From Flavobacteriales bacterium (GTDB lineage: Bacteria > Bacteroidota > Bacteroidia > Flavobacteriales_F > PHOS-HE28): DNA of 64,000 nt. The notes beneath the pieces were generated by a model. The model was not told the origin of the DNA, ran no database searches, and saw nothing but the letters and a program-made list of their open reading frames with translations. This document shows positions 1-60,414 of this stretch, in pieces (position 1 is the stretch's first letter; each line of letters begins with the position of its first letter). A program made the position numbers and the translations under genes. The stretch covers positions 297,767 through 361,766 of the forward strand of contig JADJCX010000033.1 of assembly GCA_016703005.1 (NCBI GenBank), given 5' to 3'.

Positions 1-715
1 GGAGCCTGTCCGCCGTTCATGGCCATCACGATCGGGCCGTTGAAGTAGAGCGTGTTGCCGGTCATGGCGCTGCCGATCAGGTTGCCGGGGTTCTGCATCA
101 TCGTGAGCGGGCCGTCCTGTTGATCGCTGAGGAAGCGATCGAAGATCCCCGGGAGCGTGTCGAGCTCGGGCCATGGGAAGCTGGTGGTGAGGGGAAAGAA
201 ATCCGCCATCTCCAATAGCCCGAACGAACCTTGGTTGCCGACCTTTTACTCAGGCCAACGAATCCGAGACCATGCCCCAGTTCATGCAGCGCAACGGAAA
301 CGAAATCGTGCTGGCCGGCACCGGGTGTGCCGCTGGTATCGGTGTACCAGTTGGCGCCGTTGCTGAAGAAGATATCGATGTCGTTCTCGCCGGGGTTCAG
401 GTCCACCCCCGCGATGCTGTTAGCGAGTGATGAAGCGTACCAAGTATCAGCGTAGGGCGCACCCGGAAAGTCGCGACGACCGTTGGGGAATGTGATGCCG
501 AGCGCGTTGGCGCCGAGCGGATAGAAACTCACGTTCACCTTGATCGGCACGGATGACATGAGCAGCTGCGACCAGATATCGGCCGCATGGTCGAAAGCGG
601 TGACCAACGCAGGCGGCACACTGTTGTAGGTGATGTTGAACTGAGCGGTCTGCGCGCCACCAGCAAGAAGCGAAAAGGAGAAAGCGAGAGTGATGAAGAA
701 ACGTTGGCTTCGCAT
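1..715 (-). CDS. Secreted zinc metallopeptidase (HEXXH, metzincin-like), N-terminal part. A frameshift lies near 245-248 and the 3' end runs past the window start.
   Basis: Signal peptide MRSQRFFITLAFSFSLLAG, then the HELGHGLGF zinc-binding motif. After ...GLSK the reading frame turns to low-complexity junk. The +2 frame continues with plausible protein (VGNQGSFGLLEMADFFPLTTSFPWPELD...) to position 1, and one extra A in the A4 run restores the frame. Confidence 0.5.
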
Positions 716-725
716 GCCAGCGAAC

Positions 726-1709
726 TTACACCGCCAACATTTGCACCAACCGGAAGAGGTCGGGCTCGATGGACTTCTTCTGCGTTATCGCATCGGCATG
801 CGGCGTGAACGTGATCTCGCCCTTGACGATGCCGACCACGCAGTTGTGCTTGTTGTCCTTCAAGCCCTCAACGGCAGCGGAGCCGAGTCGCGCCGCTAGC
901 AAACGATCGGCCATGGTGGGGTTACCACCGCGTTGCAAGTGACCGAGCACGCTGACGCGGATGTCGAATTGCGAGCAACGCTTTTTGACCTGCTCGGCGA
1001 GTTTGAATGCACCGCCCTCTTGATCGCCCTCAGCGACCACCACGATGCAACTGCCTTTCTCCTTCGAGCGGTTCTCCAGCACGCGCACCAGTTCCTCCAC
1101 GTTCTCCTTGCGTTCGGGAACCATCACGTACTCCGCACCCGCTGCAATGCCCGTGTGCATGGCGATGAAGCCGGTATCGCGTCCCATGACTTCCACGAAG
1201 AAGATGCGACCATAGCTCGACGCCGTGTCGCGCAAGCGGTCCATGGCTTCCAGCGCCGTGTTGCACGCCGTGTCGAATCCGATGGTGCGATCACTACCGC
1301 CCAGATCGTTGTCGATGGTGCTCGCGATGCCGATCACGCGCACGTCCTGTTCCTGTGCGAGTTGATGTGCACCGGTCTGTGTGCCGCCGCCGCCAATGCA
1401 GATCAGCGCATCAATGCCCGCATCACGCAGATTCGTTGCAGCCTGCGCACGGCCCTCCGGCTTCATGAACGCTTCGCTCCGCGCGCTGCGCAGGATGGTG
1501 CCGCCGCGCTGCACGATGTTCTTCACATCGCGCGGGCCGAGGTCGATGAAGTTCTTCTTCACCAGCCCATCATAGCCGTCCAGAATACCGGTGGTCTTGA
1601 TACCGTGGAAGTGGGCGGTGCGGACCACTGCCCGGATGGCGGCATTCATGCCGGGAGCATCACCGCCGGAGGTGAGAAGGGCGATGTGTTCGATGGGCAT
1701 GTTCAGCAT
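726..1709 (-). CDS. pfkA: ATP-dependent 6-phosphofructokinase
   Basis: 327 aa with the canonical PFK motifs LTSGGDAPGMNAAIRAVV, GDGS-like IGGGGT and MGR. Confidence 0.93.
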   Translation of the reverse strand: MLNMPIEHIALLTSGGDAPGMNAAIRAVVRTAHFHGIKTTGILDGYDGLVKKNFIDLGPRDVKNIVQRGGTILRSARSEAFMKPEGRAQAATNLRDAGIDALICIGGGGTQTGAHQLAQEQDVRVIGIASTIDNDLGGSDRTIGFDTACNTALEAMDRLRDTASSYGRIFFVEVMGRDTGFIAMHTGIAAGAEYVMVPERKENVEELVRVLENRSKEKGSCIVVVAEGDQEGGAFKLAEQVKKRCSQFDIRVSVLGHLQRGGNPTMADRLLAARLGSAAVEGLKDNKHNCVVGIVKGEITFTPHADAITQKKSIEPDLFRLVQMLAV

Positions 1710-1772
1710 TCGGGTGCCGGGCGGTTGTTCACTTTCACGACCTGCTACGGAACGGATCGTAGTGCAGCCTTG

Positions 1773-3476
1773 TCAGCCTCCTTCGCCGAAATGTACCAGT
1801 TGCGATCCACCAGAGGAATTGTTCCCGCAGGAGTGCTGCTGTACAAATGGATCCAGTCGGTCCCGACCGACCCTTTTCCCGGTCTCTCCATTAATGGCAA
1901 GGTTCACCGGCATGGTGAACCCGGGGATGCAGTTGGTCCATCGCACCCATAGACGCTTCTTCTTGATCGTGTACTCCAGCACTGGTATTTGTACGGTCCG
2001 CAAGTACTGATCGAAGATGCTCTTGTTGAGCAGCGTCTTGGTTCGCTCGCTGAAGTTGATCATGAATTCCTCGATCTCGGTGCTCGTTACGGTCTTGTGG
2101 AAGAACCGCCGGTTCATTTCCAGCAACATCGCCTTGAAGGTGCTGTCTCCGACGATGTGGCGGACCATGTGGATGAGGTTCGCGCCCTTGTTGTACATGT
2201 CGCCGCTGCCTTCCTGATTCACCCCGTAAGGGCCGATCAACGGCTTGTCGTTCGAGATGTCAGCGCGCAAACCGACCACATACTCTTCGGCGGCCTGTTT
2301 CCCGCTTTGGCATTCGGTGTAGATCGTTTCCGTGTAGTCGGTGAAGCCCTCGTGGATCCACATGTCCGCGATATCAGCCGTTGTGATGCTATTGCCGAAC
2401 CACTCGTGACCGCTTTCGTGGATGATGATGTAATCCCACTTCAGGCCGTGACCCGACTTGCTGCGATCCGTGCCGAGGTATCCGTTCATGAACTTGTTGC
2501 CATAGGCAACAGCACTCTGGTGTTCCATGCCCAAGTGGGGTGATTCCACCAGCTTGTAGCCATCCTTGTAAAACGGATATGGCCCCAGCCATTCTTCGAA
2601 GCAGTTCAACATCAACGGCACTTGCATGAAGTGCTCTCGGGCTTTCGTTTCGTTGTAGGCAAGCACCCAATAGTCGAGATCGAGTTTGCCCTGCACACCG
2701 GCGTACACTTCGCCGAAGTGCGCGTACTTCCCGATGTACGGAACGAGGTTGTACGAATTGATCGGGTTGCTCACCGCCCAGTTCCAAGTTGTGGTGCCGT
2801 TGTTATTGTGCGACTTCCCACGCAAGCGCCCATTGCCGATAGCCTCTAAGCTGTCGGGGACGGTGATATGCAATGCGGCGCTGTCGGGTTCATCGCTTTG
2901 GTGGTCTTTGCACGGGTACCACACGCTAGCGCCAAGGCCTTGGCAGGCAACGCTCATCCAAGGGTTGCCCTGCTCATCGGTCCTCCAGATCCAGCCGCCA
3001 TCCCACGGTGGGTTCTTCGCGGCGCGCGGTGTCCCGTGGTAGTAAACCGTGATGGAAGAAACTTCGCCCGCGATCATGGGGGTTGGAAGTTCAACCCACA
3101 GCACGTTGCCGTTGCGCGTGCTTTGGATCGCTTGCTCCGTGATGAGGAAATCACCGTCTCGGAAAGTCGCGACGCTGGTGGTGATGCTGTCCATCACAAG
3201 CGGTTCTTGGAGATCCACCTGCATGCGCTTGCCCTCAAGGTTCGCTGAGAACGAGATCGTCGTGATGCCAACGATCGACTTGCTCTGGAAGTCCGGGGTC
3301 ACGCTGACATCGTAGTGCGTCACATCCCACCACGCCCGGTATGGGCCAATGCTCCCGCGCAGCGAATCAGTCCGCGTGAAGTGTTGCTGGCCATCGCCCA
3401 ATTGAGCACAGGCAAGAATTGGGCAACTGAGCAGTGCGAAAGAGAGCGTACGCAGCAAGGGTGCTTGACGGGTCAT
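1773..3476 (-). CDS. Secreted M1-family metallopeptidase (aminopeptidase N-like)
   Basis: Signal peptide, a GMEHQ (GAMEN-like) exopeptidase motif and HESGHEWFGN (HEXXH) with the downstream Glu spacing typical of M1. Confidence 0.75.
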   Translation of the reverse strand: MTRQAPLLRTLSFALLSCPILACAQLGDGQQHFTRTDSLRGSIGPYRAWWDVTHYDVSVTPDFQSKSIVGITTISFSANLEGKRMQVDLQEPLVMDSITTSVATFRDGDFLITEQAIQSTRNGNVLWVELPTPMIAGEVSSITVYYHGTPRAAKNPPWDGGWIWRTDEQGNPWMSVACQGLGASVWYPCKDHQSDEPDSAALHITVPDSLEAIGNGRLRGKSHNNNGTTTWNWAVSNPINSYNLVPYIGKYAHFGEVYAGVQGKLDLDYWVLAYNETKAREHFMQVPLMLNCFEEWLGPYPFYKDGYKLVESPHLGMEHQSAVAYGNKFMNGYLGTDRSKSGHGLKWDYIIIHESGHEWFGNSITTADIADMWIHEGFTDYTETIYTECQSGKQAAEEYVVGLRADISNDKPLIGPYGVNQEGSGDMYNKGANLIHMVRHIVGDSTFKAMLLEMNRRFFHKTVTSTEIEEFMINFSERTKTLLNKSIFDQYLRTVQIPVLEYTIKKKRLWVRWTNCIPGFTMPVNLAINGETGKRVGRDRLDPFVQQHSCGNNSSGGSQLVHFGEGG

Positions 3477-18088: not shown

Positions 18089-19546
18089 ATGCTTGATCCG
18101 CTCCGCTGGTTGATCCTTGTTGCTGCGTTCGCGGCTGTATCCGGAGCGTGTGTCGGTCAAGGCGTTGGCGACCGCACGTACTATCCGGAGGAACTGCGCG
18201 AGATCTTGAGCTGTTGCGGACCACGCATCCACGAGGCACATGCCGATCCGTACCGGTACGTGAGCCGCGCGGAGCTCGATAGGCTTTTCGATCGGTTGCG
18301 TGATGGGTTGGGTACGACGCTTTCGGTCAGTTCGTTCATCGATTCGGTTGAAGTGGTACTGCGTGCGATCGGCGATGGACACACATCGTGCGAACTGCCT
18401 CTGGAGGATGCCGCGAGACTGGAAAGGCGGATCCCGATCATGCCGATGGAACTGTCGGTTATCGATGGTGGACTATATGTTCGCCGGGATAAGATGGACT
18501 TCCGGAGCATCGCACCGGGTTCCAGGGTGCTATCGATCGATGGTATTGCTGCCGAAGAGATCATCCGGACCTTGATGGACGAAGCGATCTGCGATGGTCG
18601 ATCAAGGAACGGCGCATTGCGCTTGGTCGAGAACGACTTTGCGATCCTTCACGGAATGCGCTTCGGGTTCCGCACGGAACACAAGCTCGTTTGTGAGAAT
18701 GTACATGGCGTTCTGGAACAAGTGGTCGTGCATTCGTTGACAGGTGAAGAGATGGCCGCCACGAGGCCATCGCAAGAAGAACTGCTGCCTTGGCGTGTTA
18801 CTTTCCATGAGGACCGCTCGCTCGCTTGGGTGGAAATGACCACGCTCGATGCGATGGCGCTTGCCGATGCCGATCAGCGACCCGAGAAATTCTTGGGCGA
18901 GCTCTTGCGGGAACTGGAAAAGAAGGAAGTCGGAATACTCGTGCTCGACTTGCGTGGCGCCGCGGGCGTAGACCTTGGGATGGCCGAACAGGTGTTCGCC
19001 TTGGTTGCCCAGAAACCATTCCGTGTAGTGCAGAGCATGGCCGTGCGATCGATCACGGTGCCCACTTGGTACCGCCGCGCCGTACCGCTGGATGACTTCT
19101 ATGCTTCAGCTGGTGGCCGGTTCGCACTGGAGGAGGCGGGTCTCTATGTATTGCATCCGAACGACGAGCGCTTGAAGGACCTTCCTGCGAGCTATCGCCG
19201 GTTCGAAGGCGGGGTGTATGTGCTACAGGATGGGCTCACACGGGAAGCCGCTGCTGCCGTTGGGATCCTGGCGAAGCGCAGCGGACGTGGCAAGCTGCTG
19301 GGTGAAGAGGCTGGCACGAATTCTTTCTCGTACTGCGGAGGAAGGGAATTGCTTATAACGGCACCCAATACGGGAGTGCGGTTCACGGTGCCATTGATCC
19401 GATATGTCTTCGACGGTGCAGCATCGGGCCCCAATGAACTGGGTGAATTGCCGGACATCACGCTCCAACCCGATGCCGGTAGTCTTGTTACCGGGGAAGA
19501 TGGTATCCGCAAAGCCGCGTTGACGGTCATCGAAGGACTACGATGA
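18089..19546 (+). CDS. Secreted S41-family (C-terminal processing/tricorn-like) peptidase homolog
   Basis: Signal peptide, a PDZ-like segment (VLSIDGIAAEEII) and an S41-like core. Domain recall only. Confidence 0.45.
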   Translation: MLDPLRWLILVAAFAAVSGACVGQGVGDRTYYPEELREILSCCGPRIHEAHADPYRYVSRAELDRLFDRLRDGLGTTLSVSSFIDSVEVVLRAIGDGHTSCELPLEDAARLERRIPIMPMELSVIDGGLYVRRDKMDFRSIAPGSRVLSIDGIAAEEIIRTLMDEAICDGRSRNGALRLVENDFAILHGMRFGFRTEHKLVCENVHGVLEQVVVHSLTGEEMAATRPSQEELLPWRVTFHEDRSLAWVEMTTLDAMALADADQRPEKFLGELLRELEKKEVGILVLDLRGAAGVDLGMAEQVFALVAQKPFRVVQSMAVRSITVPTWYRRAVPLDDFYASAGGRFALEEAGLYVLHPNDERLKDLPASYRRFEGGVYVLQDGLTREAAAAVGILAKRSGRGKLLGEEAGTNSFSYCGGRELLITAPNTGVRFTVPLIRYVFDGAASGPNELGELPDITLQPDAGSLVTGEDGIRKAALTVIEGLR

Positions 19547-20659
19547 GGGATCGATTTTGGTGGGGCGCACTTGCGCTGATCAGCTGCGGTACGCCGGAAC
19601 CCGATCGTGCGTTGACGGGGGAATGGATCGAGCATCGTCCTGAGGTAGCGCAACATTTCACGGTGCTCCTGAGCGGAGCACAACGTCGATTGTTGGTGTT
19701 CGCCGATCCGCAACGTGGCGATACCATCTGATCTTGTCGTTGGGGGCAAGATCCGGGAGGGTGGTCGCTTTGCCGTTCTCAGTACTACTTACTTGCCGTA
19801 CATCACTGCACTTGGGCGTACCGGTCAAGTGTCTGGTGCAGCGCATCTGGACAAAGTGCGGGATACAGCTGCGATGCGGCTCCGCGACCTTGGAAGGATC
19901 ACCGACTTGCGTACAGCCGACGGCGTTGACCGCGAAGCGATCATGGCGATTGCTCCCGACCTGGTACTTGGCTACCCCTTCGGTCGAGAGGATGGTGTCG
20001 GGACTATCGCAGGTGTCCCGTATGTAATGGTCGCAGAGTACTTGGAGGCACATCCTTTGGGCCGAGCTGAGTGGTTGAAGTTCTTCGGGGCTTTGTTGGG
20101 GAAGGAGCGGGATGCCGATAGTCTATACGCCGGGATCGCAGAGCGCTATGCCGTTGCGAAGGCCCTGCCTGGTGGCGCGGATCGCCCCAAGGTTCTTTTC
20201 GGAAGTCAATGGAACGGACAGTGGTGGGTTCCGCCGAGCAACAGCTACATGGCGCAGTTGATCACCGATGCAGGTGGCGACTACGTCTTCGCCGACATGC
20301 AAGGAAAAGAGAACATCGCGGTGGATATGGAGACCATCCTCGCACGCGCCAGTGATGCTGATGCATGGGGTATGATCGCGGAATTGCCCCGGCATCCCAG
20401 GGTTGCTGACTTCACCGGGGGTGATGAACGCCTTCTGGTGTTGAAAGCAGTGCACGAGAACAAGCTGTTCCTTGGGAACACTTCGCGATCCGACCTTTTC
20501 GGGCAGGCGATCATTGAGCCTGATATCGTGTTGGCCGAGCTGCGGGAGATCATGCAGCCGTTTCCAGGGATCACGGATCCCAGCGGGCGGAGGCCCAAGT
20601 ACTTTGAATGGCTCAGCGGTCACATTCCCCCACCTCCCGAACAGGAGCAGGGTCAGTAA
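19543..20659 (+). pseudogene. Periplasmic binding protein of an iron-siderophore/B12-type ABC transporter (BtuF/FecB-like), frameshifted
   Basis: The lipoprotein signal peptide (MRDRFWWGALALISCG) is in frame 1 (19543-19731). The binding domain (RFAVLSTTYLPYITALG...) is in frame 2 starting at GTG 19715, with a stop in that frame at 19670. Confidence 0.55.
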
Positions 20660-22951: not shown

Positions 22952-23884
22952 TTACCGGACCACTTCCACCGCCCGGGCTTCTTGGCTCCCGGCGATCTCC
23001 TTCAGCATCAGGTACCAACCTTTCTTCGACTTCCACCAACCGCTCTCCGGGCATTCCGGGTCGGGTATGGAGATCACACCGACGGAGACATCGTCCCCCA
23101 GTGCTTCCTTGTATAGCGCACGTGATCTGCGAGCATGCACTCCGAGGGTAACAACATCGAGCGCCGTGATCCCCTTTCCGTTCAAGTGGAACGCCAATGT
23201 TGATGCATTGGCCCATGATCGACTGATGGGGTCGCCACCGGCAGGCACCGGTGTGATAGCCGTGCCCGAGATGCCGGTCCCTTCAAGGATATGCGCACTA
23301 TGTTCAGCATAGGTCAGATCACCATCGCGTGAGGAACTGTCGGGCGAAACGATGCGGATACGTATGCCGAGTTCATGAGCGCTGATCCCATCGAACCGCA
23401 GTGAGTGGATGAACACGGAAGGTGGCCCTGGTTGGGGATATTGCGGGTCGGCGATGATGCGAAGGTCAGTAAGAGCAACGCTGTGATCGACCCCATGGGT
23501 CGTGATCCGATCGGTCATGGGTACATGGAGCAGCGTATCCTCACCGGACTTCACCACGGCGCTGCAACCCGGCAACCCGGCCAAACCGATCTCGAAGCCT
23601 TTCGCCGTGTTCGGCAGACCGGAAACATCAAGTCGATCGCCGGGTGCCAGGTAGTAGGCGAAGGGTCGGGTGGTTCCAGTTGTGTAAATGCGCTCATAGC
23701 CGCCGGTCGTAAAGAGCCTTGCAGCTTGCTCAATGGCGTCATCGTCCATCCAGCCTTCCACCACCAGCACTTTGCCTCCGCTGCGTTCGGTGATCGCGAG
23801 CCATGGATGTGCGAAGAACAGCAGCACCAAGCCAACAACACTCACCACTACCAGCGTGAACAATATCCTTCTCATCCACTTCAT
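22952..23884 (-). CDS. DUF218 (ElyC/SanA/YdcF-like) membrane-anchored protein
   Basis: N-terminal TM helix and a C-terminal region with the GVHARRSRALYKEAL motif resembling DUF218. Confidence 0.45.
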   Translation of the reverse strand: MKWMRRILFTLVVVSVVGLVLLFFAHPWLAITERSGGKVLVVEGWMDDDAIEQAARLFTTGGYERIYTTGTTRPFAYYLAPGDRLDVSGLPNTAKGFEIGLAGLPGCSAVVKSGEDTLLHVPMTDRITTHGVDHSVALTDLRIIADPQYPQPGPPSVFIHSLRFDGISAHELGIRIRIVSPDSSSRDGDLTYAEHSAHILEGTGISGTAITPVPAGGDPISRSWANASTLAFHLNGKGITALDVVTLGVHARRSRALYKEALGDDVSVGVISIPDPECPESGWWKSKKGWYLMLKEIAGSQEARAVEVVR

Positions 23885-24117
23885 TCGAACGCCTCCATCA
23901 AGGTGTTGCGCAACTCGTTCAACTCTCCGCGCGCTTTTCGATCAGCGTTCACCAAGCATTGCAGCATGCCCGCTTCACAAGCCGCAACAGCTTCCATCGT
24001 TCGCCCAACATCTGCAAGCTAAACGCTTGTGTTCAAGGGCTATAGCGTATCGCAGGAACACATCGTGAGGTTCTTCGGCAAGCATGGCTTGCAACTGCGT
24101 CATCCGGTCGGTGCTCA
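23880..24117 (-). CDS. Small TPR-like protein, apparently frameshifted near 24017
   Basis: MSTDRMTQLQAMLAEEPHDVFLRYAIALEHKRL (frame A) continues plausibly only in frame B (...ADVGRTMEAVAACEAGMLQCLVNADRKARGELNELRNTLMEAFE*). The stop overlaps the downstream ATG as ATGA, indicating translational coupling. Not in the ORF track because the fragments are under 60 aa. Confidence 0.35.
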
Positions 24118-24125
24118 TTGAGTGA

Positions 24126-24809
24126 TCAATGAAGAACAGGAGAGGCACCCTGTTGAAGCACCGAACCGTTGCTCATTTCCACGATGCGATCGGCAATGTG
24201 CGCGGCGTCCTGCGCATCGTGACTAACGATCACTGCCGTCATGCCCAGCCGCTTCAATAGGTGTTTCACTTCGCTGCGTACGGTTGATCGCGTGGCGCTG
24301 TCGAGATCGCTGAACGGCTCGTCCATCAGCAGCAGTTTGGGCTTTCGTGCCAGCGACCGGGCAATGGCCACGCGCTGTTGTTGGCCGCCGCTGAGCTGAT
24401 GCGGATAGCGGTCCCCGAGTTCTTCCAGCCCGAGCAGTTCAAGGTGTTCCTCTACCACTTTGTTCCTTTCGGACTTGTCGAGATGCCGGAGCCCGAAGGC
24501 GATATTCCGCTGGACCGTTAGGTGCGGGAACAAAGCATGGCCTTGGAACACGTATCCCACAGGACGGTCTTCGGTGGGCACCATACGACCCGGGCTACTG
24601 AGGACAGCGCCATCAAGCAGAATGGTTCCGGCAGTGGGTACCTCCAGGCCCGCGATCAACCGCAGCAATGTGCTTTTACCGCAACCGCTGGGACCGGTCA
24701 GAACAAGGATCTCGTGCGCATCGACGCCGATGCCAGCAGATCGAAGCACAGGCTTTCCGTTCGGGTACGAGAAAGAAAGCCCTGTGATCCGAAGTAATGC
24801 GTTGCTCAT
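24126..24809 (-). CDS. ABC transporter ATP-binding protein (FbpC/CysA-like, no TOBE domain)
   Basis: Walker [13 protein letters not shown] signature [13 protein letters not shown] and Walker B LLLMDEP. Confidence 0.85.
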
Positions 24810-26374
24810 TGGCGGGGCCGTCCATGAAGGCGGTCGAGCGCCAACACGGGAACCAGTGCGCAAAGTACGATCGCTAAGGCTGGTAGGGCAGCCTCACGTA
24901 CCTGCTCGATCCGTGTGTAGCGATGTACCGACGTGCTCAGCGTATCGAAGTCGAACGGTCGCATGATCAGCGTGAGCGGGAGTTCCTTCATCACCTCAAG
25001 CACGACCAACAGGACCGCGGCGATGAGCGCTGGGCGGAGCAGGGCAGGTTCACGCTGAAGAACGGCGCATGGGAGGCCCCCAAGGAGCGTGCGGACTCAT
25101 CTAGTGCTATGGATTGTTGTGCAAGGCCAGCATTGATGGGTTGGGCGGCGACCGCGAGGAACCGCACGCTGAACGCATATACAAGCAGGGGCAGGGTGCC
25201 GATCATCATCAGCCTGCTGCTTATGCCCATGGTCGCGAGTTGTGTATCAAGGCCACCAGCCAAGCCCATTACGCCCACGGCGATAACGGCCCCTGGAACG
25301 ACGTAACCCAGCCGCGCCAACCAAGACAACCAGCCACGTTGCCTTTGCGAAGCGCTCACTCCATGCCAGGACCAACGCGATGAGCAACGTAATAGCCGCG
25401 GCCCATGCGCCCACATGAAGGGTGTTCATGGTCGCAATGCCCAGTTCGGATATGAGGCTCATATTCACCACGTCGACGGCATCACGGATCAACACTCCAA
25501 TGGGCAACGCGCTGCTGAAGAAGAACAACAGGATGCAAGCGGCAATGACCAACCAACGCTGTTTTCCGCACAATGCGGTCCGCTTCATGGGGCGATGGTC
25601 CGCGTTGCGCAAGCCCTTTCGGCGCAACATCCGTTCGGTGATCAACAAGGTGGCCACCAAGACCAGCAATACAGTTGCCAGCCGCATTGCGCTGCCCTGA
25701 TCGTAAAGCCCTCCCCAGCTGCGGAAGATGCCCGTTGTGAGCGTCGCAGCACCGTAGTGTTTCACTGCCCCGTAGTCGTTCAATGATTCCATGCAGACCA
25801 GAACCGCCCCGCCGACGATCGCTGGTCTTGCCAAGGGCAGGGCGATCGCTACAAAGCGCCGGAACGGTGAAGCGCCCAACGTTCTTGACGCTTCGAACGC
25901 ATCCGTAAGACCTCCGCTGAACGCTGCACGTGCGGGCAGATACACGTAAGGGAAGAGCACTACTGCCAACACGATGCATAGGCCGGGCAGGTTCATGATG
26001 TCCATGCGCACTCCGAGGAGATCGTTGAATGCCAAGCTCCACGTGCCCGTCGCACCGAGTACGCCCGCATAGGCCAACGCGCTGATGTAGGTGGGCAGCG
26101 CCAGCGGCAACACGAAGGCCCAACTGAAGAACCGACGGCCCGGAAAATCGAACATCGCAATACACCATGCGCTGCCCACGCCCAGTAACGTGGCCAGCGT
26201 TACAGTGCCCGCCAGCAGTATGAGGGTCCCGGCAAGATGCTGCCAGAGGAAAGCACCGCCGACGTAATCCCATTGAGGAGCAGTGATGTGGAAGGGTGCC
26301 ACCAGAACAACCAGTATAGGAAGGCACAGCAACAATGCTGCAATTGCGGCAATGATGCTGAGCGCGCGCGTCAT
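24806..26374 (-). pseudogene. Fe(3+)-type ABC transporter permease (FbpB-like, two-domain), disrupted by two frameshifts
   Basis: Three consecutive ORF fragments (26374-25247, 25416-24991, 25009-24806) together span a single ~520-aa double permease. The shifts are at about 25305 (GGGTTAC) and about 25042 (G/C run). The last fragment carries the conserved ELPLTLIMRPFDFDTLST C-terminus. Confidence 0.7.
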
Positions 26375-36824: not shown

Positions 36825-36883
36825 GTCCTCCGTGTATTTTCGCCCGCCGTTCACGGACCGCTTCACCGCTACACTGCTTCACG

Positions 36884-37465
36884 ATGATCCTACCGATCCG
36901 CGCCTTTGGCGATCCCGTCCTCAAGAAAGTGGCCAAGGACATTGAGAAGGGGCATCCCGGCCTTTCGGAACTGATCGCCGATATGTACGAGACGATGTAC
37001 GAGGCGAGCGGTGTGGGCTTGGCCGCGCCGCAGGTCGGCAAGAGCATCCGGTTATTCATCGTGGATGCCTCACCGTTCGCCGAGGACGAGGAATTGGAGC
37101 AGGAAGAGCGCGACTTCCTCAAGACCTTCAAGCGGGTCTTCATCAATCCGTACATCGTGGAAGAGGACGGCGAGCCTTGGCCTTTTGAAGAAGGCTGCCT
37201 GAGCATTCCCGGCATCCGCGAGGAAGTGAAGCGACAGGAGACCATCGTGCTGCAATGGCAGGATGAGAAGTTCAAGGAGCACGAAGAGGAATTCAGCGGG
37301 TTCGCGGCGCGCGTGATCCAGCATGAGCACGACCACCTCGACGGAAAACTGTTCATCGATAAGCTGCCCGTGCTGAGGCGCACCATGCTGAAAGGCAAAC
37401 TGCGGGACATCAGCCAAGGCAAGACGGACGCCAAGTACAAAATGCGATTCACTCCATTGAAATGA
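36884..37465 (+). CDS. def: Peptide deformylase
   Basis: Motifs GVGLAAPQ, EGCLS and QHEHDHLDG. Confidence 0.93.
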   Translation: MILPIRAFGDPVLKKVAKDIEKGHPGLSELIADMYETMYEASGVGLAAPQVGKSIRLFIVDASPFAEDEELEQEERDFLKTFKRVFINPYIVEEDGEPWPFEEGCLSIPGIREEVKRQETIVLQWQDEKFKEHEEEFSGFAARVIQHEHDHLDGKLFIDKLPVLRRTMLKGKLRDISQGKTDAKYKMRFTPLK

Positions 37466-38112
37466 AGAAGCTCATAGCGATCACGATACCCATAGTACTG
37501 CTGTTCTCGGCATGCGGTGGTGGACAGACCGAGGAACCGAAAGCCGCTGACGCCAGCAACGGCGCTCAGTTGATGCAGGCCCGCATCGACAGCATGCGCC
37601 TTTCCATGGAGGACGATACCATCTACAATGCGCGCGGCGCACAGGAATTGTTGGATGTGTACAAGGCGTATGCGAAGGCCTATCCGCTGGACAGTCTTTC
37701 ACCCGAGTTCCTTTTCCGCGCTGCCGGCCTTAGCGATCCGTTGGGCCGTCCGGATGAGAGCGTGGTGCTCTACGATCGCGTGATCAAGAGCTACCCCGCA
37801 TGGCCGCGCTTGGTGGACTGCTACTACTTGAAGGCCTTGACCATTGACAAAATGCAGCGCAAGGGCGAAGCGCGAATGGCCTACGAGGAAGTGATCAACC
37901 GGTTCCCGGATCACCAGTTCGCGGCGGATGCGAAGCAGATGATCGAGAACCTCCAGTACACGGATGAAGAACTGATCGAGAAGTTCCGCATGCAGAACGG
38001 TCTCGAGGCGCAGGCAGCGACCAACGCCTCGCAGGCACCTGCATTGAGCAAGGCGGAACAGTCCGCAGCCGACAAAGCTGCCACTGAAGCGAAGGAGAAG
38101 GCCAAGGGGGGA
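37462..38112 (+). CDS. TPR-like lipoprotein. The track ORF runs on to 38649, probably through a G-homopolymer frameshift.
   Basis: Lipobox LLFSACGG and a TPR-like body. With G5 instead of G6 at 38106-38111 the protein ends ...ATEAKEKAKGE*. As assembled it reads antisense through pyrC. Confidence 0.5.
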
Positions 38113-38183
38113 ATGAACTTTTGGGACCGAGGGGCGGCGCGCCCATACACCGGAACGGGGCAGTGGGCGACAGACTGGGGCGA

Positions 38184-39473
38184 TCACCGCGCCATTTCAA
38201 CGGCCTTTGCCAGTACGGCTTTTCCGTTCGCTACGATACCGAGTGGGCGCCCCACGAAATGCTGGCCGATGAAGGGCGTGTTCTTGGACCGACTGACGAT
38301 ATCCGCAGCGCTGAAGGTCCAGTCGCAATTCGGGTCGAAGAGTGTGAGATCGGCGAGAGTGCCTTCGGTGATGTGTGATGTAGGCAGCCCGAGCACCGCA
38401 CGCGGGCCGTGGCTGAAACGCTCCACGATCCTGCGCAAACTCATATGTCCCTTGAGGGCGGTATTTGCAACAGCGAAGGCCGTCTCCAAGCCGATCATAC
38501 CGAATGCGGCATGTGCGAACTCCAGCTTTTTGTGCTCCACATCCTCCGGACGGTGGTCGCTCACCACGGCATCGATCGTACCGTCCTTCAACCCATCGCG
38601 AAGCGCATCTATGTGCGTGCGGTCGCGTAGGGGCGGCAGCACTTTGTAGTGGGTGTCGAAGCCGCGCAGACAGCCATCGTCCAACAACAGATTGTGCGCG
38701 GCCACAGAGCAGGTCACCTTCATCTTCTTCGCCTTGGCGGCTTTGATGAGGGCAACGCTTTCAGCGGTACTGATGGCGGCCACGTGCATGCGGCCTCCGG
38801 TATACTCGAGCAGTGACAAGTCGCGCTGTAGCGCGATGGTCTCGGCCATGGGTGTCAGTCCGCGCATGCCGAGCCGAACGCTCATGGGGCCCTCGTGCAT
38901 CATGGTACCCACGCCGAGGTCCGCATCGTGCGGGAAAGCGAACACGGTACCATCGAAGTTGCGGCAGTACTGGAGCGCAAGCATCATCAGGCGCGTGTTG
39001 GGCACGGGGCTCTGATCGTCGGTGAAGGCCACGGCACCGGCTTGGTGCAGATCGTAGAGTTCCGCCAACTGTTCGCCTTTCAAACCCTTGGTAAGGGCGC
39101 CGAGCGGCAGCACGCGTACCGCGTGGCCGTTCGCCTTGCTCAACAGGTATTCGATCCCGGCGCGCGCGTCCAGCACCGGTGTTGTGCTCGGCAGCACGGC
39201 CACGGCCGTGAAACCACCAGCGGCGGCGGCATCGAGCCCATTGGTCAGGCCTTCCTTCCATTCTTCGCCGGGGTCGCGGAAATGGACGCGCAGGTCCACC
39301 CAGCCAAGGCTCACGTGCGCGCCGGGGATTTTCCATTCGCGGGCTTCGCCCTTGGGCAAACGCGCACCGATGCGGACGATCTTGTTGCCGCTGATGAGCA
39401 TATCCACCTCCGCCTCGTGATGCTCGCCGCCGGGGTCGATCACCGTGATGTTGCGGAGCAGGAGGTCCTTCAT
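38184..39473 (-). CDS. pyrC: Dihydroorotase (type I, multifunctional-complex-like)
   Basis: Amidohydrolase fold with VDLRVHFRDPG (HxH-like region) and AFTDD. Confidence 0.8.
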   Translation of the reverse strand: MKDLLLRNITVIDPGGEHHEAEVDMLISGNKIVRIGARLPKGEAREWKIPGAHVSLGWVDLRVHFRDPGEEWKEGLTNGLDAAAAGGFTAVAVLPSTTPVLDARAGIEYLLSKANGHAVRVLPLGALTKGLKGEQLAELYDLHQAGAVAFTDDQSPVPNTRLMMLALQYCRNFDGTVFAFPHDADLGVGTMMHEGPMSVRLGMRGLTPMAETIALQRDLSLLEYTGGRMHVAAISTAESVALIKAAKAKKMKVTCSVAAHNLLLDDGCLRGFDTHYKVLPPLRDRTHIDALRDGLKDGTIDAVVSDHRPEDVEHKKLEFAHAAFGMIGLETAFAVANTALKGHMSLRRIVERFSHGPRAVLGLPTSHITEGTLADLTLFDPNCDWTFSAADIVSRSKNTPFIGQHFVGRPLGIVANGKAVLAKAVEMAR

Positions 39474-45589: not shown

Positions 45590-45653
45590 CAGGAACTGGA
45601 ATTCTATTCCTGAACTCGCTGCCCGTGTAAGCTTCCCCTAAAGTCGGGCCAGC

Positions 45654-46850
45654 GATAACTGGAGGTCTCAGGAGCATGTGGGTTAGAGTTGGATGGGCAC
45701 TGGCGGCCGGTAACCGAGTGCTTTGTGAGGTCGAAGATGGTTGTAATCGTACATCCATTCGGTGGTGCGCAAGCGAACCTCATCGAGGGTACGGAAGACG
45801 TATGCGCTGAGCACATCACGGCGCAGGGTTCCGTTGAGCCGTTCGATGTAAGCGTTTTGCGTGGGCTTGCCCGGTTGGATGAAGGTGAGGGTGATCTTTT
45901 GGAGCTTGCACCAGTGATCGAGTTTGGCGCTGATGAACTCCGGTCCATTGTCCACGCGGATCATGGTCGGTAGCGGACGATGTTCCTTGATCTGTTCAAG
46001 GGCACGTATCACGCGCTGAGCAGGCAGTGAGGTGTCCACCTCGATGGCCAGTACCTCGCGGTTGTAGTCGTCCAGGATATTGAGCAGTCGGTACGTGCGA
46101 CCGTCCCAGAGGCTGTCGTGCATGAAGTCGATGCTCCACACCTGATCAGGGGCTTGTGGTTGGAACAACGCCTGCTTCACGCGGGCAGGCAGGCGCTTCT
46201 TGGCCCTGCGCCGGATGTTCAGGCCCATGGCCGTGTACACCCGGTACACGCGCTTGAAGTTCCAGCGTTGACCCGTCAAACGCATGCGGTGATGGCTCTG
46301 CCACACGCCGATGGCCGGATGCCGCTGGGTGAGTTCGCCCAAGGCTTGGATGATCGCCGTGTCATCGGGTGGGTGCTTGAGGTACTGCGCGGTACTGCGA
46401 GCAAGGCCCACACAACGGCAAGCCTGCCGCTGTGTAAGTCCGTGTTCATTGCTCATCGCCTGCACGATTTCGCGCTTCTCGTCAGGCGCCCCACTTCTTT
46501 TCCACCACCTGCTTCAATGCATCGTGCATCATGCTCAGCTCGGCATACATGCGTTTGAGGCGTCCGTTCTCCTCCTGCAGTTCCTTCATCTGCTTGAGTT
46601 GGCTGGCGTCCAGACCACCGTACTTGGCCTTCCACTGGTAGAACGTGGCGTTGCTGATGCCGTGCTCGCGACAGATGTCGGCGACCTTGGCTCCAGCGTC
46701 ATGCTGCTTGAGCATCGAGACGATCTGATGCTCGGTGAACTTGCTTTTCCTCATGGCTACTACTTGTGTTGAAAGTAGCCCCTGACCGGTCAACGGGATT
46801 TTTCCCCAGGCCTGATGGGCCGGGAAAAATCCCGTTGACCTCCACTATCA
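45654..46850 (-). mobile_element. IS3-family insertion sequence (about 1.2 kb). orfA runs 46482-46754 and orfB (DDE integrase core) 45683-46465.
   Basis: orfA has an HTH region (MRKSKFTEHQIVSMLKQHDAGAKVADICREHGISNATFYQWKAKYGG). orfB has the rve/DDE core (...DNGPEFIS...[12 protein letters not shown]...). Imperfect terminal IRs about GATA(A)nTGGAGGTC at both ends. orfB overlaps orfA by about 33 nt but in the +1 rather than the usual -1 frame. Confidence 0.8.
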
Positions 46851-46872
46851 CATGGCCGAAGATTGGGGAAGC

Positions 46873-47973
46873 TTACACCGATCCTTTGCATATCTGCCCG
46901 CATAGAAAGTCGCTTGGCCTGGAGTCTTTGATTTCGATGCCGAAGGACTGCATCCTTCGATAAATGGTTTCGAAACCCACCATCGAAGGTTTGCCGTATT
47001 CAGCATTCACAGGTATATAGAATGGCTTGGTGAGAACATCGGCGGCTTCGCTGAAACGCTCATGCTTTATAAGGACCGCCAAGGAGAAAAGAAACAACTC
47101 ATGAATGAGAAATCTGTAGTTGTCAAACTCCCAGTCCTGCCAAGAATTCAAATTGGGTGACTTGTCCATATACGGAATGATGTCTTCAAAGAACCGATGA
47201 AGGCGATTAATGATTGCCTCACTCGGGTGATACTGGGCGATAGCCACGAAGAGATGAAGCATCTCGTTTCGTTGCGGAAGAAAGTCTCCAATGCTCGCTA
47301 CTACTGCCTCACCGAATTCTCCAGCCGGGTTCACTAATCTGATTCGCTCAAGGTTCTTGGCAAACGTTGTGCAGTACTCATCAAAGGCACCTTCAGCGTA
47401 GCTTTTATGGTCCCTTAGACCTTCCAGGCACCTTTTGAACAATAGAGAGGTGCCCAATGATGCATGCTCGCCCTCGTTCAAGAACGTGGGCATGGTACCT
47501 ATTTCGGGCTTCACATAAAGGGGTTTGTCAAAAATCCATCGGAGCAGCCGTTCAAGGTTGTCCGAGTACCGGTCCAATTCACTGAGGTCGATGTAGATTC
47601 TGGCCTTGTAGTATGTAGGAAGAAAGGGTTTGTCATTTGCGTCTTTATGGCTCACAACAGCAACGAACTTGTTTTGGTCTTGTCTGTCGTAAACTTCCTT
47701 AGAGATGATTTGCGTTTCAGTTCCAACACCACCCGATCGACCGTCCGCCTTACTCGCGTATTTCTCATCGCAGATAATAACCACCTTCTTAATGTCTGGA
47801 TTGGTGACCATTTGCTCCATGAAGGCCACCGCATCATGCCCTTCCCTCAAATCCCATTTGTCCAGAATCACATCCACTCCAGCCGACCGCAATTGAGTTG
47901 CAAGATCAATGACCCATTGTTCGTGATCCGGGCTGGACCAGCTGTATGAGATGAAGAGTTTTGGGGCGGACAT
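46873..47973 (-). CDS. TIR-domain protein with an uncharacterised ~230-aa C-terminal domain
   Basis: N-terminal TIR-like block KLFISYSWSSPDHEQWVIDLATQLRSAGVDVILDKWDLREGHDAVAFMEQMVTNPDIKKVVIICDEKYASKA. Low-GC (~45%) coding sequence. Start trimmed to MSAPKLF. Confidence 0.6.
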   Translation of the reverse strand: MSAPKLFISYSWSSPDHEQWVIDLATQLRSAGVDVILDKWDLREGHDAVAFMEQMVTNPDIKKVVIICDEKYASKADGRSGGVGTETQIISKEVYDRQDQNKFVAVVSHKDANDKPFLPTYYKARIYIDLSELDRYSDNLERLLRWIFDKPLYVKPEIGTMPTFLNEGEHASLGTSLLFKRCLEGLRDHKSYAEGAFDEYCTTFAKNLERIRLVNPAGEFGEAVVASIGDFLPQRNEMLHLFVAIAQYHPSEAIINRLHRFFEDIIPYMDKSPNLNSWQDWEFDNYRFLIHELFLFSLAVLIKHERFSEAADVLTKPFYIPVNAEYGKPSMVGFETIYRRMQSFGIEIKDSRPSDFLCGQICKGSV

Positions 47974-48585: not shown

Positions 48586-48665
48586 ATGCCGGCTTGCGCC
48601 GTTCGGGTTACTGCGCACCGATCGCGTGAATCGCTGACGTCCCGACAAGTCCGGATGTCCTTCGG

Positions 48666-49058: not shown

Positions 49059-49195
49059 TGGGCTTGGGCGTCGATCAAATCTAGCTTGGCGCTGCGTCTA
49101 TAAGTAAGGAACGCGCGCGCGGCTTACGATGGAGAGGTACAAGGGTTTCACCTTTCATTCTCCTTGATCTGCTGGCCACGAGTAGGGATATTTCG

Positions 49196-49448: not shown

Positions 49449-49584
49449 GTAAAAAGAGGCGTACGGAAGTCAAGCTTTTACTCTGACGGAGGTGTTTCCT
49501 CGCATCCGATCGCAGGTCAGCAGCCTTCGGTGTGTGTCATTCAGTCAAGGGCCTGTGGCCCGCCGCATGCATTAGCTTGAACCC

Positions 49585-55743: not shown

Positions 55744-57211
55744 ATGAACGCTCGTTACTTACTGCTCTTTCCCATTTGCGCAATGGCCCTCCAAGCCACC
55801 GCCCAAGTGGATCCCTTGGACCCCGGTTTCGGCACCAATGGCATCGTTAGCATCCCCGGCACCTATGCGCAGGTCGGCGAGTTCGTGTTGCCGTACGACG
55901 ACGGCCGTCTGTTGGTGGTAAGCTCGCTGCTGCCATGGATGGCGCCGACACAACGAGTGCAGTGTACACGCTTGTTGCAGGATGGAACGTTGGATGCGGG
56001 TTTCGGCACTGGCGGCACCGTGGAGTTGTACCTGATGGGCGAGAAGTTCACGGCCACTGATGGCGCGTTGCTGCCCAATGGAGCCATCGTATTGTGCGGG
56101 TATTTGGGCGATATCGCGGGCGGCGTTCTGATGAAGCTGTTGCCGGACGGAAGTCCCGACCCGCTGTTCGACTCGGATGGCATTGCGGTGTTTCCCGGTC
56201 TGGATGTGCTCCACTCGGTATTGGTGTTGGCCGACGGCTCCATGATCGCATCTGGAGAAACCATTGAGCCGGTGATCTTGAAGGTGAACGCGTTCGGCGA
56301 ACCTGACGCCGCTTTCGGCAACAGCGGTTTTCTCTACCCCTCCGGTACGGGCGCCATTACCCATCTGGAGCGCACGCCCGGTGGCGATGTGGTGGGCGCA
56401 GGTTACATCAACATCATGTTCGACCTCTTCTTTGTGAAGTTCACCACAACAGGCGACCTCGTTTCGACCTTCGGCACCAATGGCGAAGCAATCGTTCCGC
56501 TGCTGCCATCCAACGACGCTCCGCGCGCGCTGCAGATCCTGGACGATGGCCGCATGATGGTGGCGGTGAACGGTGATGGGGCTGATTCGTACATGGTGCG
56601 GCTCAACGCCGACGGAACCCTGGACCCGAGCTTTGGCGTCGGTGGTGTTGTAGCAGGTGCCTCGTTACCCAACGGCGATTTCCTCTTCACCAGTTCGGTT
56701 ACCACGCCGCAAGGCACCACCATAGCGGGCTACAGGGCGTTGACGCCGGGCATTGCCTACGTGGTGCGCTTGGATGCCAGCGGAAGTCCGGTGCTGGGCT
56801 TCGGCAACAACGGCACGTACACGCTCGACCCTGATACCTCCTACTTGCATGGCGCCTGTGTAACAGCGTTGGGCCAAGTGGTGGTAACAGGGGGTGAAGC
56901 TGTTCGGCCCGAACATGGGCATTCTCGTTGCGCGGTTGTCGGCCAGCCCCGAAGGCATCGAACAACTTGCTCCCGGTGTTGAACCGCTTTCCATCATCCG
57001 CATTGCAGCTGATGCTGTGCGCGTAACCGCGGGCGATCGCGTTCTGGAGTGTTGGGTGTTCGACGCGGCCGGTAGAACGGTGCAGCACCTCAACGGCAAT
57101 GGAACGGCTGTGGTCGATATCGGCACCGGCGGCATCAGCACAGGGGCATACGCGGTAGTGGTGCGCACACAAAGCGCAACCGTGGCAGGGCGCTTCGTGC
57201 AGAGCGAGTAG
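55744..57211 (+). CDS. Delta-60-repeat protein with a T9SS C-terminal sorting domain, interrupted by a frameshift near 56890-56894
   Basis: Signal peptide, then repeats of the form .DGSLD..FG..G (LDAGFGTGG, PDPLFDSDG, PDAAFGNSG, LVSTFGTNG, LDPSFGVGG, PVLGFGNNG). The Por-secretion tail is in ORF 56894-57211. G4 instead of G5 at 56890-56894 joins the two ORFs (...VVTGVKLFGPNMGILVARL...). Confidence 0.6.
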
Positions 57212-58927: not shown

Positions 58928-59044
58928 GGATCAGGCGTTGTGCGCACAGACGCATAGTACTGACCGACCGTGCCGGAAAGGGTGATGGGCTGTTGAACCG
59001 GCAACCGATGGTGCTCATGTGTTGACCGTAGTCGTACGCCACGT

Positions 59045-60414
59045 TCAGCGCACCAGCGCCACATGCCCGAGCAACTCGCGGCGTTGCGTCGGTTCCGCCA
59101 ACAGCTGCGCCTTCACCTGCACCACATAGATGCCACTGGGTACTTCATCGGCACTCCATGATGCACCCGATGTGCCGTTGAAGAGCGCCTGCCCCCAACG
59201 GTCGAAGACCACGAACTCCAAGGACCAAACGCGCGGGTCGTAAACGGGTGCGAAGTTGTCGTTCATGTCGTCGTGGTTCGGGGTGAAGGCGTTGGGCAGG
59301 TAGATGCCGTCCGGACATTCCTCGCTGACGACCAGCACGCTATCGATAGCGCCTCCGCAGGTGTTGCTCACCGTGGCGTAGTACAGCCCGGGCCCGTGGA
59401 TGGTGCGGTCGGTGCCAATAGTACCATCATCCCACACCACCGTGGTTCCGGCATCGGCAAACGCATGCAGCACATCGTTCGTTCCGCTGCACAGTGTACG
59501 GTCAGCACCGAGTTCCAAGTAGGGGAGCGGCACCAGCCCCACCACCACGGTGTCCGTGAATTCACAATCGCCCACGCTCACCTGCACGCTGTACGTGCCC
59601 GGACTTGTCACGGTACGTTGCGCGGTGGTGACGCCGTCGTTCCACAGCGTTGCCGTTGCACCCGGCACGGTAGCATCCAGTATATAGGAGCCGCCGCAAA
59701 GGGCAGTGTCGGGCCCCAAGTCCAGCTCATCGAGCACGGGCACCAGCGACACATCATCCACCAAGAGGTAGGCTTGCTCCGTAACCACACACCGGGGTTG
59801 AACATCGCCCAGGTGGTGTTCGCATCGTTGCGGAAGTTGCCGATGGTAAGGTGTGTTTCGCCGCCACCGGCCGTGTACGTGCCGCTGACTTCCGTCCAGC
59901 CCAGCGTATCGGTTATGAGCACGCCAAGCGGGTGGTCGATCTGTGGTGTCAGCGCCAAGACAAAGGGACTATTGCTGCTCACGGGTCCTACGCTGAAGTG
60001 CGCCCCGATACCATCGCAGGCCAGTTCGAATTCGTTCGGCATGTTCACGTACATGCTGAAGGTGTAACACGAGCCGGCCACGAGGGGTTGCAACAACGGC
60101 ACTTCGATGTACTCGCGCATTTGCGGCACACCCACGCGGAAGGTGTAGATGCCCGCAAAGCCTACACCCGTCCGCGCATACTGAAAACCGCCGCTGTAGT
60201 TGAGCGGCACCCCAGCGAAATCGCCGTTCGGCGCGCAGCCGTGGTAGAGCTCCGGCGTGCCTTGCGTGGGGTTGTACCACGGCGCGGCAAGGTTCAGCAT
60301 GCTTGCGAACGTGGGGCAGCTGGTAACGGTCTCGAAGCTGGGGTTGGGCACCAGATTCTGCGTGCGCGCACCCAGCGCGCAGAACAAGCCTGCCGAAAGA
60401 GCCACGTACCGCAT
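59045..60414 (-). CDS. Secreted protein with a T9SS type B (gliding-motility-associated, CHU_C) C-terminal sorting domain, with a frameshift near 59794-59797
   Basis: The N-terminal ORF (60414-59608) has a signal peptide. The C-terminal ORF (59788-59045) ends in IYLPNAFTPNHDDMNDNF...SGIYVVQVKA. One extra G in the G4 run at 59794-59797 fuses them (...AMFNPRCVVTEQAYLLVDDVSL...). Confidence 0.6.

Follow-up and report, generated by a model that had tools for sequence, protein, structure and literature searches.

Do the many broken reading frames in a 64,000-nucleotide stretch of a MAG from the Flavobacteriales belong to the organism, or were they introduced when its genome was assembled? The initial annotation of this stretch, hereafter the window, had listed eight single-base frameshifts in seven genes and preferred systematic indel error to an organism that is shedding secreted and transport functions. 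Comparison with other assemblies of the same species supports this preference: the lesions are, with two exceptions, private to the window, the damaged genes are whole in short-read contigs, and the source assembly was thinly polished. From the aligned sequences we judge, with a probability of about 0.9, that the frameshifts are consensus errors of long-read metagenome assembly and not mutations of the organism, and that they probably arose during consensus building and polishing.

Materials and Methods

The window is a piece of a 510,943-bp contig of the MAG Aved_18-Q3-R54-62_BATAC.823_sub (JADJCX000000000, locus tag prefix IPG74), assigned within the Flavobacteriales to the family and genus PHOS-HE28; raw reads of sample Aved_18-Q3-R54-62 are held under BioProject PRJNA629478. 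The pipeline of Singleton et al. 2021 (PMC8012365) took Nanopore R9.4.1 reads through CANU, Racon, two medaka rounds, and a single Illumina Racon round. Supplementary Data 3 of the same paper gives JADJCX a coverage of 11.35x in Nanopore and 5.25x in Illumina reads, a strain heterogeneity of 60, and a polymorphic rate of 0.027; JADJCX and JADJJQ form one dRep species cluster, 291_1 (Singleton et al. 2021, PMC8012365).

Lesions were called from three-frame translations and from alignment to same-species assemblies, which represent other samples and other strains at 97-99.6% identity. The short-read contigs in this set (MEGAHIT, JGI or Logan) amount to ~55 kb altogether, and GCA_963851765.1 was counted among the long-read MAGs, though a literature search gave no record of its technology. 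A scan of genome contigs for relatives returned distant ones alone, at no more than 80% identity, and an exact look-up of three window proteins from 47-61 kb found no match. Pfam and NCBIfam scans of the gene fragments backed the splitting in part only, most of them being too short or divergent for more; the same-species assemblies, rather than domain scans, decided the split-gene calls.

Results

About 16 indel events are scattered across the window and affect 10 of its ~55 genes. All seven genes named at the outset proved to be disrupted, at or near the places where the damage had been located, when three-frame translations were set against the same species; for every one of the eight sites, numbered here 1 to 8 along the window, the gene is whole in at least one short-read contig. 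The description of the lesions has to change, however. Single-base homopolymer frameshifts account for three sites (1, 4, and 7), and the remaining five comprise a 2-bp TG loss, an 89-bp deletion, two pairs of 1-bp deletions, and the loss of a T at some distance from the run proposed for it. Single-base change mostly in G/C homopolymers describes part of the sites only; site 1 is an A/T run, and most lesions lie outside repeats. Both extra and missing bases do occur, but 13 of the ~16 events are deletions, so that to speak of errors in both directions is misleading. Three further lesions lie beyond the eight sites: one alters the C-terminus of an M1 peptidase, one consists of two changes that offset each other in an S41 peptidase, and one falls between genes.

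The window opens within a gene for a secreted, NF038122-like metalloprotease with an HELGHGLGF motif (1..715, minus strand), truncated by the window start. Here, at site 1, the anticipated 1-bp frameshift is plain: the window has T4, and five of five other assemblies, the short-read Logan contig L010 among them, have T5. The run occupies 244-247, one base away from the 245-248 given earlier; the lesion is private to the window, and the orthologs in two other assemblies are whole at 382 aa. In the M1 aminopeptidase gene (1745..3476, minus strand), an extra G at 1881-1882 shifts the frame of the final ~45 codons, and 567 aa are read instead of 576. Four other assemblies, including L010, conserve the C-terminus GKGSVGTDWIHLY...VPLVDRNWY, and over this tail the alternative frame is preferred by coding score. 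The same extra G at 1882 is present, on another haplotype, in the long-read assembly GCA_016718415. Compensation has kept the S41 peptidase gene (18089..19546, plus strand, its start inferred from a 485-aa ortholog) in frame: at 18202 one base is lost (GG to G) and at 18226 a C is gained, both changes being private to the window, and eight codons are garbled. The intergenic lesion, a 1-bp deletion (TTT to TT) at 36861, lies upstream of a peptide deformylase gene; two other assemblies, L016 (from GCA_963851765.1) and the Logan contig L017, agree on this.

The periplasmic binding protein gene (Peripla_BP_2; 19543..20659, plus strand) is disrupted at site 2, as had been seen at 19.70 kb, by a lesion that is neither single-base nor in a homopolymer: a 2-bp deletion at 19729-19730, TGTG to TG in six of six comparisons. 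It parts the lipoprotein signal peptide from the Peripla_BP_2 domain, and the ortholog runs uninterrupted over 372 aa in all other assemblies. At site 3 (24.02 kb) a small TPR protein gene that adjoins the ABC uptake operon (23881..24118, minus strand) is indeed broken, not by one base but by an 89-bp deletion with its junction at 24017/24018; six assemblies hold the gene whole, at 108 aa. The two-domain ABC permease gene (BPD_transp_1; 24806..26374, minus strand) is split over three frames at a net cost of 6 nt. Its fragments are contiguous in the window, and its ortholog is a whole 524-aa protein in L001/L100 and in the short-read contig L104. Site 4 (25.04 kb) bears out the homopolymer description, G4 having become G3 at 25042-25044 against 11 of 11 other assemblies; beside it a T is lost at 25064 and G5 is reduced to G3 at 25068-25070. 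The frameshift of site 5 (25.30 kb) is real as well but resolves, in eight of eight comparisons, into two 1-bp deletions: one at 25331, accompanied by a substitution, and one at 25343 (T4 to T3, spanning 25343-25345).

At site 6 an ORF for a TPR lipoprotein (37462..38649, plus strand) reads through antisense to a dihydroorotase gene; the true gene encodes 218 aa and stops near 38116. The stop has been lost, as proposed, yet the G6 run at 38106-38111 contains no extra G. A T and a G are missing at 38106-38113, and it is this loss that created the run: relatives have AAGGG[C/G]GTGAAGT[G/A]A (..KGVK*), and the proteins of L016 and L017 both end in ..KEKAKGVK*.

The two remaining sites lie in T9SS genes. 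The gene for a delta-60 repeat protein that ends in a T9SS type A tail (55744..57211, plus strand) carries the expected extra base in a G run, 56889-56894 (site 7), relative to two in-frame assemblies, L099 and the JGI contig L109. The +1 recurs in GCA_963851765, and over four assemblies the run measures G5, G4, G3, and G3, with differences in nearby substitutions too. The T9SS type B (CHU_C) protein gene (59045..60414, minus strand) is frameshifted at site 8, but the G4 run that had been blamed is not the cause: 11 nt away, at 59783/59784, a T is missing (GTATAC to GTAAC). Five other assemblies hold this gene whole, and three Nanopore MAGs break it at three differing places (268/188, 314/142, and 260/96 aa). 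Repair of the indels yields full-length genes with no other defects: the delta-60 protein returns to the 488 aa of its whole ortholog on L109, and the type B protein to the 456 aa of its orthologs. Proteins deposited at NCBI (MBK6777504.1, IPG74_17245; MBK6777503.1; IPG74_17225) are exactly the fragments that the window encodes.

Overlapping same-strand ORFs suggested further frameshifts at 6.8, 11.0, 21.15, 22.97, 35.6, and 63.49 kb, but these are separate genes: in order, rpsP/rimM, MFS/DUF4476, DinB/Mpo1-like, an unnamed membrane protein and a T9SS-tailed protein, dapD/GT9, and cytochrome c peroxidase and its neighbor. Differences from L016 at 32058 and 34654 were likewise rejected as window errors; ORF integrity and Pfam coverage favor the window there, and these are therefore errors of GCA_963851765.1. 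The window also differs from its relatives by real structural changes, an IS3/TIR island and a GIY-YIG insertion. The IS3-family insertion sequence (45625..46878, minus strand) keeps orfA and orfB in separate frames that overlap. It is the sole split in the window for which we expect a natural origin, despite an atypical frame offset; no second copy against which to check the offset was found in the compared loci.

Statistics across assemblies separate the window from short-read contigs and place it with other long-read MAGs. For each lesion private to the window, between 2 and 11 other assemblies disagree with it, and the two exceptions, 1882 and 56889, are shared with one long-read MAG each. 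The ratio of private SNPs to private indels is 675:2 in short-read contigs and 146:11 in the window (Fisher p = 4e-7); both private short-read indels belong to one compensating pair, and frameshifting indels are otherwise absent from these contigs. Private indels number 3.9 and 2.9 per 10 kb in the two sister MAGs of the Singleton set, 2.5 in GCA_963851765, and ~2.0 or more in the window. In three other long-read MAGs, private frameshifts strike the CCA-adding enzyme, miaA, an SBP gene, and the permease at other positions, and a sister MAG from the same pipeline has a private 67-bp deletion in miaA. Indels that look natural come in multiples of three, such as 21 nt in an E1 dehydrogenase gene, GGG, and AGA. 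Runs of four or more hold 16% of the 44 long-read-private indels vs 4% in the background, a 4-fold enrichment, and 68% of these indels lie off runs of three or more. The methylation motifs GATC, CCWGG, CCGG, GCGC, and GGCC showed no enrichment near the indels.

Discussion

How could so many lesions have entered a polished genome? Low coverage in both Nanopore and Illumina reads, combined with high strain heterogeneity, would allow small indels to be kept in the consensus. Such indels would be mainly deletions of 1-2 bp, frequently clustered and enriched in homopolymers without being restricted to them, and a dropout of tens of bases might occur now and then; gene callers would then split or extend the genes that were hit. 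Several lesions of the window are multi-base or clustered, deletions dominate, and most indels lie off runs, a pattern that implicates low coverage and mixed strains as much as homopolymer miscounting. The original emphasis on homopolymers appears overstated, and low-coverage, strain-mixed consensus error fits better than pure homopolymer miscounting.

A bacterium in the course of genuine pseudogenization, in which frameshifts are removing secreted proteins together with an ABC system for uptake of the iron or siderophore type, is a very improbable source of this pattern. The genes hit are mainly secreted, T9SS, or transport genes, but this bias can be the chance outcome of sampling a Bacteroidota region rich in them; neither the 89-bp deletion nor the loss of 2 bp is a classic homopolymer error, but the lesions are, save those at 1882 and 56889, unshared across up to 11 same-species assemblies. 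Related strains were checked for the same disrupted genes, and the genes were found intact. Private frameshifts are just as numerous in other long-read MAGs, where they strike unrelated genes, some of them housekeeping genes, and short-read contigs are without them. Nonsense substitutions and other signs of decay are absent, repair of the indels restores full length, and the compensating pairs and intergenic lesions form a pattern not expected of selection-free decay. The cross-assembly evidence therefore gives no support to the shedding of secreted and transport functions. Regulated frame change, whether by phase-variable homopolymer tracts or by programmed ribosomal frameshifting in surface-protein genes, is barely conceivable. 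It would suit the surface or secreted nature of the proteins hit and the variable length of the G run at 56889 over four assemblies; against it, the tracts measure only 3-6 nt, most lesions are off repeats, and the sequence near 56889 varies by substitutions as well. Orthologs of the broken genes are single uninterrupted ORFs, which leaves no recoding site that is conserved.

Some points do speak against consensus error: 89 bp exceeds the typical size of a Nanopore consensus error, only about a third of the long-read-private indels fall in runs of three or more, and two lesions, 1882 and 56889, are each found again in another long-read assembly and could be real polymorphism. In a mixed origin, most lesions would be errors and a few, with the 89-bp TPR deletion, 1882, and 56889 as candidates, would be real strain-level variants within the Avedore population. 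We regard this as unlikely, though it draws on several observations: the MAG is highly heterogeneous in strains (polymorphic rate 2.7%), the contigs of another assembly break around 24 kb, the 1882 and 56889 lesions were each seen again in a second assembly, and real structural variants (the IS3/TIR island and the GIY-YIG insertion) exist elsewhere in the window. However, the recurrent lesions stand on different haplotype backgrounds and in long-read assemblies only, which context-dependent systematic error fits better than inheritance; the 67-bp miaA deletion in the sister MAG shows that mid-size dropouts come out of the pipeline; and the short-read contigs are all whole at the candidate sites. 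Somewhat more doubtful still is the specific proposal that these few lesions are true Avedore alleles, so that a PHOS-HE28 strain there has disrupted surface-protein or uptake genes, or else that indels recurring at identical positions in independent Nanopore assemblies betray some sequence context or base modification by which basecalling is systematically misled in this lineage.

If the lesions are consensus errors, the value of the finding is that of a data-quality flag rather than of biology. JADJCX is a published "high-quality" species representative, and its fragments are already public as separate hypothetical proteins (MBK6777503.1, MBK6777504.1). With at least ~2 indels in every 10 kb, extrapolation over 4.16 Mb would give several hundred to ~1000 residual indels, and the mis-called genes would run into the hundreds. 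Any metabolic reconstruction, count of pseudogenes, presence/absence call in a pangenome, or protein-family seed that draws on JADJCX and its sister MAGs would need frameshift-aware comparison or re-polishing, and correction of homopolymers alone would miss most errors here. The advice that each pseudogene call in this region be backed by reads agrees with the cross-assembly evidence.

Among known systems, host-restricted or recently specialized bacteria such as Mycobacterium leprae and Shigella carry lesions that are shared by the lineage and confirmed by reads, together with nonsense mutations, deletions, and IS expansion. The window resembles them in the many frameshifted genes per unit length and differs in that its lesions are unshared and its genes otherwise pristine. 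Contingency loci of Neisseria, Haemophilus, and Campylobacter change phase through poly-G/C tracts, typically of 7 nt or more; frame changes in the G runs of surface-protein genes recall them at two window sites (25042 and 56889), but the tracts here are of 3-6 nt, their positions are not conserved, and most lesions are off tracts. The two-frame layout of orfA and orfB is that of IS3-family transposases, which use programmed -1 ribosomal frameshifting. Compared with a related RefSeq IS3, the orfB of the window stands in the +1 frame, not -1, and the element may therefore carry another 1-nt deletion; the other broken genes lack any such mechanism. A further known system is residual indel error in Nanopore R9.4.1 assemblies, by which gene calls are fragmented (Sereika et al. 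2022, PMC9262707; pipeline of Singleton et al. 2021, PMC8012365). The window departs from it in that two thirds of the indels are off runs of three or more, in the clustering of lesions within tens of bases, and in the 89-bp dropout. It resembles such assemblies in its assembly-private, homopolymer-enriched indels, mainly deletions of 1-2 bp, in its split and extended ORFs, and in being a low-coverage bin with thin Illumina polishing whose sister MAGs look much the same.

Lesions in the window and their repair

Three-frame translation of the window (GC ~59%; ~55 genes, from a Bacteroidota organism with a T9SS) shows that, at or near all eight frameshift sites proposed in the initial annotation, the named gene resumes in another frame. 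Fragment profile searches gave only partial confirmation of the gene splits, and the same genes were therefore sought in other assemblies. The comparison DNA, retrieved via exact-protein look-ups, is 96-99.6% identical to the window; the compared assemblies span 58.8 kb of it, 45.2 kb with at least two assemblies. The long-read set comprises three MAGs: GCA_016706435.1 (JADJJQ, Ejby plant), present in the Singleton table; GCA_016718415.1 (JADKDH, locus tag prefix IPO17), whose accession and contig naming match the Singleton series; and GCA_963851765.1, putatively long-read. The short-read set consists of many contigs from ENA MEGAHIT assemblies, JGI and Logan, their short-read status being inferred from naming.

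At the window start, a metalloprotease (HELGHGLGF) is frameshifted at 244-247, where T4 replaces the T5 of 5/5 relatives. An extra G at 1881-1882 throws the last ~45 aa of an M1 aminopeptidase off frame; the alternative frame, kept in four assemblies, scores better as coding. In an S41 peptidase, a compensating pair (-1 at 18202, +1 at 18226) garbles 8 codons. The Peripla_BP_2 binding protein, now in a different frame from its lipoprotein signal peptide, is split at 19729-19730 (TGTG to TG vs 6/6 relatives), and an 89-bp deletion at 24017/24018 interrupts a small TPR gene that is intact, at 108 aa, in six assemblies. The two-domain ABC permease, elsewhere intact at 524 aa, occupies three frames with a net loss of 6 nt: G4 to G3 at 25042-25044, a T lost at 25064, G5 to G3 at 25068-25070, -1 with a substitution at 25331 and T4 to T3 at 25343-25345. 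An intergenic base is missing at 36861. A TPR lipoprotein lacks a T and a G at 38106-38113, so that its ORF overruns into the convergent dihydroorotase gene, antisense to it, for 540 nt, whereas relatives terminate in ..KGVK* at 218 aa. The delta-60 repeat protein, which has a tail of T9SS type A, carries +1 at 56889-56894 relative to two compared sequences, L099 and the JGI contig L109; both encode the in-frame peptide VVVTGSELFGPNMG, and the L109 ORF is intact at 488 aa. Finally, the T9SS type B (CHU_C) protein, whose true peptide is FNPGVWYTEQAYL, has lost a T at 59783/59784 (GTATAC to GTAAC vs 3/3 relatives). Deletions make up 13 of the ~16 indel events, and once the indels are undone the proteins are full length without further defects.

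The initial annotation had thus made a real but imprecise observation. All the genes it named are disrupted, and the metalloprotease, first permease and delta-60 sites are as it described. Its second permease site is two single-base deletions, and the binding-protein, small TPR, lipoprotein and T9SS type B sites were wrong in kind or exact place: the G4 run blamed for the T9SS type B lesion lies 11 nt from the actual T loss, and the lipoprotein change read as G6 for G5 is the combined loss of T and G, the G6 run having arisen through the T loss. The lesions at 1881-1882 and 18202/18226 had been missed.

Assembly error versus strain variation

Apart from two recurrent changes taken up below, the lesions are absent from the other same-species assemblies compared, with an intact gene in at least one short-read contig at each of the eight sites. 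Related strains do not share the disrupted genes, and we therefore put the probability that assembly error accounts for the bulk of the lesions at roughly 0.9, in line with the earlier preference for indel error over pseudogenisation. Private SNPs and indels stand at 675:2 in pooled short-read contigs, where the only private indels form one compensating pair, vs 146:11 in the window and 277:17, 66:9 and 123:11 in the three long-read MAGs (Fisher p 3e-8 to 4e-7, window included). These MAGs carry 3.9, 2.9 and 2.5 private indels per 10 kb at other places, breaking the permease (at positions different from those in the window), the SBP gene, the CCA-adding enzyme, miaA, the delta-60 gene and the T9SS type B gene. 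The last is intact at 456 aa in five assemblies, and three MAGs with locus-tag prefixes from one series (IPG74, IPO17, IPI55) have it split 268/188, 314/142 and 260/96. Natural-looking indels, in turn, are multiples of three, as exemplified by a 21-nt indel in a loop of the E1 dehydrogenase, by GGG at 56579 and by AGA at 58918. These patterns, like the full-length proteins obtained on repair, point to error.

Two sets of changes could instead reflect genuine variation. The 89-bp deletion in the TPR gene is unusually large and lies near a contig break in GCA_963851765.1, and could thus represent genuine variation between strains; a private 67-bp deletion in miaA of GCA_016706435.1 (window 30423-30490), however, shows that the errors of the pipeline include losses of this order. 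The G inserted at 1882 and the base added to the G run at 56889 each recur in a second, independent long-read assembly (GCA_016718415.1 and GCA_963851765.1, respectively), which leaves a small door open to real polymorphism or hypervariable sites; yet they recur on a different haplotype background, which fits context-dependent systematic error.

Assembly error need not mean homopolymer miscounting, as first proposed. Runs of at least 4 are indeed enriched, holding 16% of the 44 long-read-private indels vs 4% of positions, but 68% of these indels fall outside runs of at least 3. Common methylation motifs showed no enrichment near the 44 indels. Indels concentrate at strain-divergent stretches and cluster in the window (18202/18226, 25042-25070, 25331/25343, 38108/38112), as they do in L098, a GCA_963851765.1 sequence with four insertions inside 130 bp. 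We posit that a weak consensus, built from 11x Nanopore and 5x Illumina coverage of a mixed population, would generate such errors, rather than pure homopolymer miscounting.

Source MAG and sister assemblies

A homology search with the repaired T9SS type B protein as query identified deposited NCBI proteins that match exactly the fragments encoded in the window (MBK6777504.1, IPG74_17245, 268 aa; MBK6777503.1, 188 aa; IPG74_17225, 412 aa), all three on one contig of 510,943 bp from a MAG labelled "Flavobacteriales bacterium". The source, Aved_18-Q3-R54-62_BATAC.823_sub (JADJCX000000000; o__Flavobacteriales; f__PHOS-HE28; g__PHOS-HE28), has 35 contigs, belongs to dRep species cluster 291_1 and was sequenced to 5.25x (Illumina) and 11.35x (Nanopore), with CheckM strain heterogeneity of 60 and a polymorphic rate of 0.027 (Supplementary Data 3, Singleton et al. 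2021, PMC8012365). It was assembled with CANU v1.8 from Nanopore R9.4.1 reads and polished with Racon, twice with medaka (model r941_flip213) and once more with Racon using Illumina reads (PMC8012365); bins at low coverage (<40-fold) need Illumina polishing (PMC9262707).

GCA_963851765.1 is likewise no clean reference. Private frameshifts affect its CCA-adding enzyme, GT9 C-terminus, SBP gene, permease and delta-60 gene (in its sequences L016, 4683-6156 and 7723-8625; L101, 3333-4378 and 4428-6004; and L098, 13215-14686), and at window positions 32058 and 34654, where the two sequences differ, the error most plausibly lies in GCA_963851765.1. Its contig break falls at window ~23560-23630 (contig 1 ends at 23627, contig 11 begins near 23560), a few hundred bases from the 89-bp deletion and the permease error cluster. 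It also carries a ~740-bp insertion with a GIY-YIG nuclease gene (L016 11236-12040) between the lipoprotein and dihydroorotase genes, absent from the corresponding stretch of the window (38117-38183), and, in a variable loop (44899-44949) of the E1 dehydrogenase gene (43182-45239), differs in length from the window by 21 nt (7 aa) without a change of frame, in contrast to the frameshifting indels.

The lesions are no biological feature; they matter as a warning for users of the source and sister MAGs and of the protein fragments that these have seeded in public databases; beyond that, their interest is low.

The IS3 element

At 45240-49570, GC falls to 52.7% and the content departs from that of contig 11 of GCA_963851765.1; the stretch, which comprises an IS3 element, small ORFs and a TIR/SEFIR-domain protein (46873-48054), looks like a strain-specific, possibly defence-related island. 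The IS3-family insertion sequence (45625-46878, minus strand; 14-bp terminal inverted repeats) is the only naturally two-frame gene in the window. Its orfB (45683-46513, minus) is offset from orfA (46482-46772, minus) by +1, in contrast to the canonical -1 arrangement of a related RefSeq IS3 (L110); a further 1-nt deletion, perhaps within the A4 run (46498-46501), would account for this offset.
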